The notes under the pieces are model-generated. The model was not told the DNA's origin, did no database searches, and was given only the letters and a program-made list of their open reading frames with translations. A stretch of DNA of 64,000 nt, taken from Escherichia coli (GTDB lineage: Bacteria; Pseudomonadota; Gammaproteobacteria; Enterobacterales; Enterobacteriaceae). Below are positions 27,190 to 27,825 of the stretch, piece after piece. Made by a program: the position numbers and the translations under genes. Numbering within the stretch: position 1 is the first letter of the stretch; each line of letters opens with the position of its first letter. The DNA lies in assembly GCF_003334405.1 (NCBI RefSeq), contig NZ_QOWM01000001.1; one strand, given 5' to 3'.

Positions 27190-27825
27190 TTGCTCATCAG
27201 GCAGCGGATATCTGTCAACCTCACTACTATCGAAGACTCTCCCCATCTATAAATAAAACACCTTTAACTTTCATTCGGAAAGTATTCTTCTGCGCGTATC
27301 TTGATTTTGCCCAAAGTTACATGTTGAAATGAATAATGTCTGTTTGACACTCATTATCATTTATTAATACAGATAATGGAGAAAATAGAGTTGAATAATC
27401 AGGCAGGACGTAATTGAAACTTGATTAAATTCTGGCTATAGTGTTTATATATTATATCGACAAAAGCGGGTTAATGCCAATCGCATTATATGTTCATTGT
27501 TTGTTTTTTAAGCTATTGGCATTCATTGTTGATATACTTCCTGTTTTTTCTAAATATATATTTCGTGTTTTTTTAGAAGATCCTTAAGATAATCTTTCCC
27601 CTATCAATATATTAATTAAATCTACATTTACTCATTAGTAAAATTAAATTGAATCAGGGGAGTGAAAACATCACTATTCGACCCCACACCAACGAATACA
27701 TTTTTTACGACCTGTTTTTTTGGATCGCATGCCGTATTCAATGGCTGGGTATAAACATTGGCTATTGACTGAATCAATGTATTGCAATGTTTATATTTTA
27801 ATTATTTATAGTTTAAGGACAAATA

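Follow-up and report, generated by a model that had tools for sequence, protein, structure and literature searches.

The sixA-yfcV spacer and its base composition

The window, that is, the whole stretch of 64,000 nucleotides analysed here, is E. coli K-12-like and carries on its plus strand, according to the RefSeq annotation, the gene order fadI-fadJ-sixA-(spacer)-yfcV-yfcU-yfcS-yfcR-yfcQ-yfcP-yfcO. The spacer between sixA and yfcV corresponds to positions 2455647-2456326 of NC_000913.3, is identical to MG1655 at 679 of its 680 positions and constitutes the longest gap between genes in the surrounding 18.7 kb of annotation. The elements at this locus are the following:

26660-27145, plus strand: sixA (RefSeq annotation)
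27146-27825: sixA-yfcV intergenic spacer, 680 bp, 31.8% G+C, non-coding
27155-27191, plus strand: perfect 15-16 bp hairpin 3' of the sixA stop codon, likely the sixA terminator
27826-28389, plus strand: yfcV, encoding the fimbrial major subunit, at the head of the yfcVUSRQPO chaperone-usher operon

Some differences from MG1655 were observed in the window. The one in the spacer concerns position 27536, which is an A in the window and a G in MG1655; the 92-94% identical alleles have an A here as well, each top-listed K-12-type genome shows one mismatch to the window, and A is probably the ancestral base. The usher gene yfcU (28471-31116) is an intact open reading frame of 881 aa in the window and a pseudogene with an internal stop in MG1655 records, the sole difference from the compared MG1655 record being a C in place of a G at position 30207; with an intact usher, the yfc operon of this strain may be fully functional. 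Relative to an MG1655 record, fadL carries a 24-nt in-frame deletion at 21576, and other single-base differences are located at 18993, 24538 and 34408.

The long AT-rich gap upstream of yfcV that the earlier note had pointed out is real, and it is the most AT-rich stretch of its size in the 64 kb. The spacer has a G+C content of 0.318 and positions 27190-27825 one of 0.313, compared with 0.491 for the whole window, and just 0.1% of all 636-bp segments of the window are as AT-rich as 27190-27825. The segment of this length with the lowest G+C content (0.302) is found at 27208, inside the spacer. Runs of at least six A/T occur at 7.4 per kb in the spacer vs 1.3 per kb, and 70 TpA steps were counted, where 680 bp contain 34 on average. 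The three A/T tracts quoted previously as examples were all recovered, at 27504-27520, 27552-27566 and 27642-27660. Two further AT-rich stretches exist in the window, at ~9771-10780 (minimum G+C 0.33) and ~19114-20780 (minimum 0.32), the latter overlapping the published yfdF/mlaA promoter island.

By its sequence, the spacer is non-coding. The previous statement that it lacks any ORF holds for conserved reading frames, while mechanical ORFs of 30-57 aa do occur. Stops or frameshifts disrupt all of these but one already in alleles of 92-94% identity; the remaining ORF (27159-27332) shares sequence with the hairpin and is missing from the deeper alleles. Six spacer ORFs had no credible match in NCBIfam, the translations of all six spacer frames had no match in Pfam even at E = 10, and the Rfam covariance models returned no match up to E = 1 on either strand of positions 26000-29000. 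In the RefSeq annotation of the listed genomes, the spacer is devoid of any feature apart from IS1 where this element is inserted.

The hairpin directly behind sixA (centroid energy -22.5 kcal/mol, z = -4.6) has a stem that covaries, with CCCAAT/ATTGGG in the K-12 allele, CCCGAT/ATCGGG in O157 and CCCGGT/ACCGGG in B2-type strains, which indicates a selected structure and is most simply explained by a function as the sixA terminator. The assignment of a sixA terminator in the earlier note is in agreement with this covarying hairpin, but not with the downstream sequence of the K-12 allele, which has no U-tract; a T-run follows the hairpin in the O157 and E2348/69 alleles. In O157, T-runs flank the hairpin on both sides, an arrangement that resembles a bidirectional terminator, and both runs are degenerate in the K-12 lineage.

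Spacer alleles and IS1 insertions among E. coli genomes

The sixA gene is present throughout the E. coli genome collection, and its downstream spacer falls into several allele classes. The K-12 type (at least 99% identity) was found in 1,227 genomes, a class with 90-95% identity in 1,818 and the O157 class, which is alignable only over the last 160 bp, in 430 genomes; in ~1,900 genomes no megablast match was obtained. We compared five deep lineages via representatives, for which spacer length, G+C content and identity to the K-12 spacer (shuffled control, ~57%) were as follows:

K-12 group: 680 bp, G+C 0.32
O157: 645 bp, G+C 0.29, 68% identity
E2348/69: 662 bp, G+C 0.29, 66% identity
B2-type (JA0266/PU-1): 565-567 bp, G+C 0.26, 59% identity
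2017-02-2CC: 548 bp, G+C 0.27, 57% identity

Over these lineages, the spacer length ranges from 548 to 683 bp and the G+C content from 26 to 32%, and the adjoining sixA is 93-99.8% identical. The maintenance of length and AT-richness despite a near-complete turnover of the sequence argues that both are selected properties of the spacer. The preservation of spacer length and G+C content in five deeply diverged alleles is new here, together with the repeated insertion of IS1 and the conserved position of an antisense promoter-like site, both described below.

The unusual length of the spacer, as well as the absence of its distal third (27192-27400) from the B2-type alleles, might be taken to indicate that a gene once present here, for instance for a local regulator, has decayed and left a spacer without any regulatory role. 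We consider this very unlikely in view of the empty six-frame Pfam search, the absence of credible NCBIfam matches to its ORFs, the retention of extreme AT-richness and at least 548 bp in every allele lineage, and the published binding of RNA polymerase and H-NS. The diversity jumps sharply at the sixA stop codon, from the 93-99.8% identical sixA to a hypervariable spacer and yfcV (69-98%), which suggests that the major subunit and its control region have jointly undergone allelic replacement or diversifying selection.

Within the divergent spacer, the allele comparison revealed several conserved blocks:

27414-27431: conserved block TTGnnnCTTGAnT, the -35 region of the promoter assigned by Shimada 2014
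27607-27621: conserved block
27687-27700, plus strand: conserved C-rich block CACCAnnGAATA within otherwise randomised sequence
27736-27751, plus strand: conserved block (G/A)TTCAATGGCTnnnTA, also given as GTTCAATGGCT
27791-27825, plus strand: proximal block with the highest conservation (88% across alleles) and the invariant TTTAAGGACAAATAATG at its end

The proximal block contains the ribosome-binding site AAGGA (27815-27819) and abuts the yfcV start codon, with conservation extending over 27791-27837. The C-rich block may serve as a binding site for a regulator or in Rho utilisation.

Insertion sequences provide another type of variation. At least 20 complete E. coli genomes carry IS1 (IS1A or IS1B) within the spacer. 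In the five genomes that we examined, the insertions are independent, occurred in both orientations and are flanked by target duplications of 9-10 bp:

27358-27605: IS1 insertion zone in other E. coli genomes, with five independent sites at 27358-27366, 27370-27379, 27458-27466, 27488-27496 and 27597-27605

This zone could be an insertion hot spot or could represent a natural route to the de-silencing of yfc.

Promoter-like sites, H-NS motifs and candidate switches

The following predicted sites in the spacer are of relevance for the transcription of yfcV:

27414-27442, plus strand: sigma-70 promoter-like site TTGAAA-17-TATAGT (10/12), matching the yfcV 'constitutive promoter' of Shimada 2014
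27451-27480, minus strand: antisense promoter-like site TTGGCA-18-TATAAT (11/12), directed towards sixA
27602-27614, plus strand: perfect match TATCAATATATTA to the IHF core, unique to the K-12 allele
27772-27784, plus strand: perfect IHF core match AATCAATGTATTG, common to the O157 allele

A simple consensus scan, which differs from the PlatProm algorithm of the promoter-island authors, detected four promoter-like sites with at least 9/12 matches in the spacer, where ~0.7 would be expected in 680 bp; this number ranks among the top 4% of windows. Sites with at least 8/12 matches numbered 12, distributed over both strands, compared with a mean of 2.7 (top 0.7%). Relative to the rest of the window, the spacer hence shows the high density of promoter-like sites that is one of the criteria for promoter islands. 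There was no excess over dinucleotide shuffles of the region itself (5 found vs 4.7).

The sense site would initiate transcription at ~27449, giving rise to a putative untranslated leader of ~377 nt; the word leader in the earlier note presupposes such transcription. The -35 block of the sense site (27414-27431) is kept in all five allele lineages, but outside the K-12 group the complete promoter is retained just in E2348/69, in a weaker form. The antisense site is both a closer match to the consensus and better conserved than the published sense promoter: it recurs at the homologous position in four of the five allele lineages with hexamers and spacing retained (TTGAGA-17-TATACT in O157, TTGTGA-17-TATAAT in E2348/69, a weak version in the B2-type), and the DNA between the hexamers differs among alleles, as does the randomised sequence on either side of the site. 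Both sites are interleaved, with predicted starts ~5 bp apart, and a strand-blind SELEX peak at this position could equally reflect the antisense site instead of the sense site. The productive yfcV promoter could be the site at 27414-27442 or could lie within the proximal 220 bp, which are conserved. We give only a small chance to the further idea that the conserved antisense sigma-70 site was selected as a decoy or competitor for RNA polymerase, or as the promoter of an antisense RNA, and as such would be part of the OFF state, with the recurrent insertion of IS1 into one stretch of 250 bp as a possible natural route to ON; the antisense RNA in that case would be an unannotated transcript that could reach the sixA hairpin.

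For H-NS, the consensus is tCG(t/a)T(a/t)AATT, and no site with one mismatch or less was present in the spacer. Ten sites with up to two mismatches were found, a 3.8-fold excess and the densest accumulation in the window (top 0.07%), yet this number is explained by base composition, with 6.6 +/- 2.7 sites in shuffles of the same composition (P = 0.12). Thus, the scan for H-NS motifs suggested in the earlier note gave no enrichment beyond composition. DNA curvature, the other computational check suggested there, was calculated with a Bolshoy-type wedge model under both tilt-sign conventions, using phased vs unphased A-tracts as control (end-to-end ratio 0.35 vs 0.97). The predicted bend was unexceptional; the most bent 200 bp ranked at the 8th percentile of the end-to-end ratio under one tilt-sign convention, and all other values were ordinary. 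Likewise, the AA/TT periodicity at 10-11 bp was insignificant in the spacer (P = 0.26), leaving the phasing of its A-tracts ordinary. The spacer is marked by its composition, without a specific nucleation site or bend. The promoter-like and H-NS-like sites follow from this composition and by themselves are no proof of design, and AT-richness alone is a generic feature. The IHF core consensus WATCAANNNNTTR yielded two perfect plus-strand matches vs 0.16 expected in shuffles (P = 0.014).

Control of yfcV by a fimS-like invertible promoter would require a recombinase to flip a repeat-bounded segment, turning yfcV ON or OFF. Judged by geometry only, a perfect 10-bp inverted repeat (27247-27256 / 27802-27811) would be suitably placed, bracketing 545 bp upstream of the ribosome-binding site, and the bracketed segment includes the two IHF core matches, fimS likewise making use of IHF. 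However, this pair, the best that we found, is at chance level for the composition (shuffles, P = 0.42) and unconserved in the O157, E2348/69 and B2 alleles, so that the earlier judgement of no convincing pair of flanking repeats stands. The fimS repeat TTGGGGCCA has no match in the spacer with fewer than two mismatches, and a recombinase gene is absent among the annotated neighbours from fadL to aroC. We further queried 5,426 complete E. coli genomes by megablast with a construct in which 27260-27790 was reverse-complemented and placed between the 3' end of sixA and the 5' end of yfcV. No place in these genomes covered more than 52% of the query, and the best coverage of 52% corresponded to the query centre alone, on the opposite strand. 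An inverted piece would join the flanks and score higher; hence, none of the assemblies contains an inversion detectable by megablast. For comparison, fimS occurs in both orientations among assemblies. As far as the sequence data reach, an invertible switch is excluded, and we regard its existence at yfcV as extremely improbable; the preference for silencing over inversion voiced at the outset is consistent with the lack of an inverted variant in the 5,426 genomes and of a nearby recombinase.

A Pap-type epigenetic phase switch, in which Lrp binding and Dam methylation compete at two GATC sites, deserves consideration for Yfc, whose usher is of the pi clade like that of Pap, and two GATC sites are indeed located in the spacer, at 27579 and 27723. 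Nevertheless, this number matches the expectation from composition (~2.1), the distance between the sites is 144 bp as opposed to ~102 bp in the Pap-type switch, and neither site is conserved, the one at 27579 being confined to the K-12 allele and the one at 27723 lacking in the B2-type and 2017-02 alleles. Moreover, neither NCBIfam nor six-frame Pfam searches of the spacer uncovered a papI- or papB-like ORF or remnant. A switch of this type at yfcV is therefore highly unlikely.

Proposed silencing of yfcV and comparison with known systems

The coordinates of the published promoter island at this locus were transferred to the window through NC_000913.3, using an offset between genome versions that we take to be 1,977 bp:

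~27360-27848 (approximate): promoter island 2453647_489 (yfcV/sixA), reported as H-NS-bound

This island is listed as "2453647_489 yfcV(-)/sixA(-)" among the 78 promoter islands of Panyukov & Ozoline 2013. The term denotes AT-rich DNA with an abundance of potential start points, to which RNA polymerase binds and where it forms open complexes. As a class, promoter islands are transcriptionally defective, with almost no full-length RNA made from them. The spacer shares with them a G+C content far below average over at least 300 bp (0.318 vs 0.491). In the compilation of Panyukov & Ozoline 2013, the association of this island with H-NS is attributed to the ChIP data of Kahramanoglou for MG1655 and of Oshima for W3110, and the same compilation leaves the island unscored for the ChIP-chip data of Grainger (code K, not A).

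Genomic SELEX provides further binding data. Shimada 2014 reported a peak of the RpoD holoenzyme in the spacer, from which the promoter TTGAAA-17-TATAGT was assigned, as well as a flagged H-NS site, and Shimada 2017 reported a peak of the RpoS holoenzyme, which maps to ~27325 of the window. Binding of H-NS in vivo and in vitro, binding of sigma-70 and sigma-S holoenzyme free of activators, and inducing conditions have been shown by others. With regard to expression, many commensal chaperone-usher fimbriae are cryptic and repressed by H-NS, and yfc encodes cryptic but functional fimbriae, according to the account that Wurpel 2013 gives of Korea 2010. Expression of yfcV is raised in CFT073 upon overproduction of TosR (log2 FC 5.2), a PapB-family protein and predicted antagonist of H-NS and Lrp; it is also raised by overproduction of BolA and by the Rho inhibitor bicyclomycin. 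Our literature search for yfc expression in an hns mutant yielded no direct result. Taken together, the occupancy by H-NS and RNA polymerase and the induction by TosR, BolA and bicyclomycin fit H-NS/Rho silencing with counter-silencing. Silencing of the yfcV region by H-NS, as proposed from its AT-richness, thus finds support mainly in the published ChIP, genomic SELEX and induction data.

The response to bicyclomycin could also speak for control at the RNA level, by which a long structured 5' leader, a cis-acting RNA or an unannotated small RNA would control yfcV after initiation. The leader of ~377 nt expected from a promoter at 27414-27442 folds slightly better than its shuffles (z = -2.55), and the region 27500-27700 is skewed towards C over G and includes the conserved C-rich block, features that suit Rho loading. 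Nonetheless, the Rfam search remained without a match, the predicted helices are unconserved, as exemplified by an 11-bp pair (27750-27760 / 27785-27795) that is broken and uncompensated in O157, and the putative leader is mostly at random-level identity between alleles. With a hypothetical leader that lacks conserved helices, riboregulation would be only a weak addition. As the principal mode of control we judge it unlikely; it can coexist with silencing by H-NS.

In our preferred interpretation, to which we assign a probability of roughly 80%, the cryptic yfc operon is regulated through the spacer, a promoter island coated and silenced by H-NS, with no inversion involved. H-NS would be recruited by the overall AT-richness and TpA content, and not by a high-affinity site or a static bend. 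From there, it would spread across the many overlapping sense and antisense promoter-like sites and block productive initiation, and the transcripts that escape would stay untranslated and probably be terminated by Rho. Expression of yfcV would then require an anti-silencing event. Candidate anti-silencers are a PapB-family protein, e.g., TosR in uropathogenic strains, raised levels of BolA, or the disruption of the H-NS-bound tract, e.g., by insertion of IS1. For yfc specifically, we infer the causal role of H-NS in silencing, the participation of Rho and the position of the promoter.

In E. coli, the Yfc fimbriae represent an adhesin that is core-associated yet cryptic, and the spacer would decide on their expression. 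The binding of H-NS, the non-invertibility and the preserved length and AT-richness narrow the search for the natural inducing signal. These results are mainly confirmatory and leave the current understanding of fimbrial regulation unchanged: the spacer had already been catalogued as an H-NS-bound promoter island, and yfc appears as an ordinary case of cryptic fimbrial operon control.

The organization of the spacer corresponds to that of the promoter islands, among which it is itself listed, in its low G+C content, in the excess of promoter-like sites on two strands and in the binding of RNA polymerase and H-NS. The same list includes the upstream regions of most other K-12 chaperone-usher operons, namely yadN, sfmA, ybgD, elfA, yehD, yraH, ecpR and fimB/E/A. 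There is no material difference; the spacer is flagged by one of five foreign-gene predictors (column B) and unscored by Grainger. It also resembles fimS, an AT-rich region upstream of a major-subunit gene that is likewise listed as a promoter island and has IHF-like core sites, but functional inverted repeats and a neighbouring recombinase are lacking at yfc, and none of the 5,426 genomes showed an inverted version. Another comparison is with the H-NS-silenced fimbrial operons pap, tos and csg with their regulators PapB, TosR and CsgD, with which yfc shares an AT-rich, H-NS-bound upstream region, being itself cryptic in laboratory culture. In contrast to these operons, yfc has no linked gene for a dedicated regulator; still, the induction of yfcV in CFT073 by TosR, a PapB-family protein, resembles the counter-silencing of the pap/tos type. 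A further parallel exists to bgl, a cryptic operon that is silenced by H-NS bound to an AT-rich upstream silencer and is activated by the insertion of IS1 or IS5. Similarly, H-NS binds the AT-rich DNA upstream of the cryptic yfc operon, and IS1 is inserted at this very place in natural isolates.
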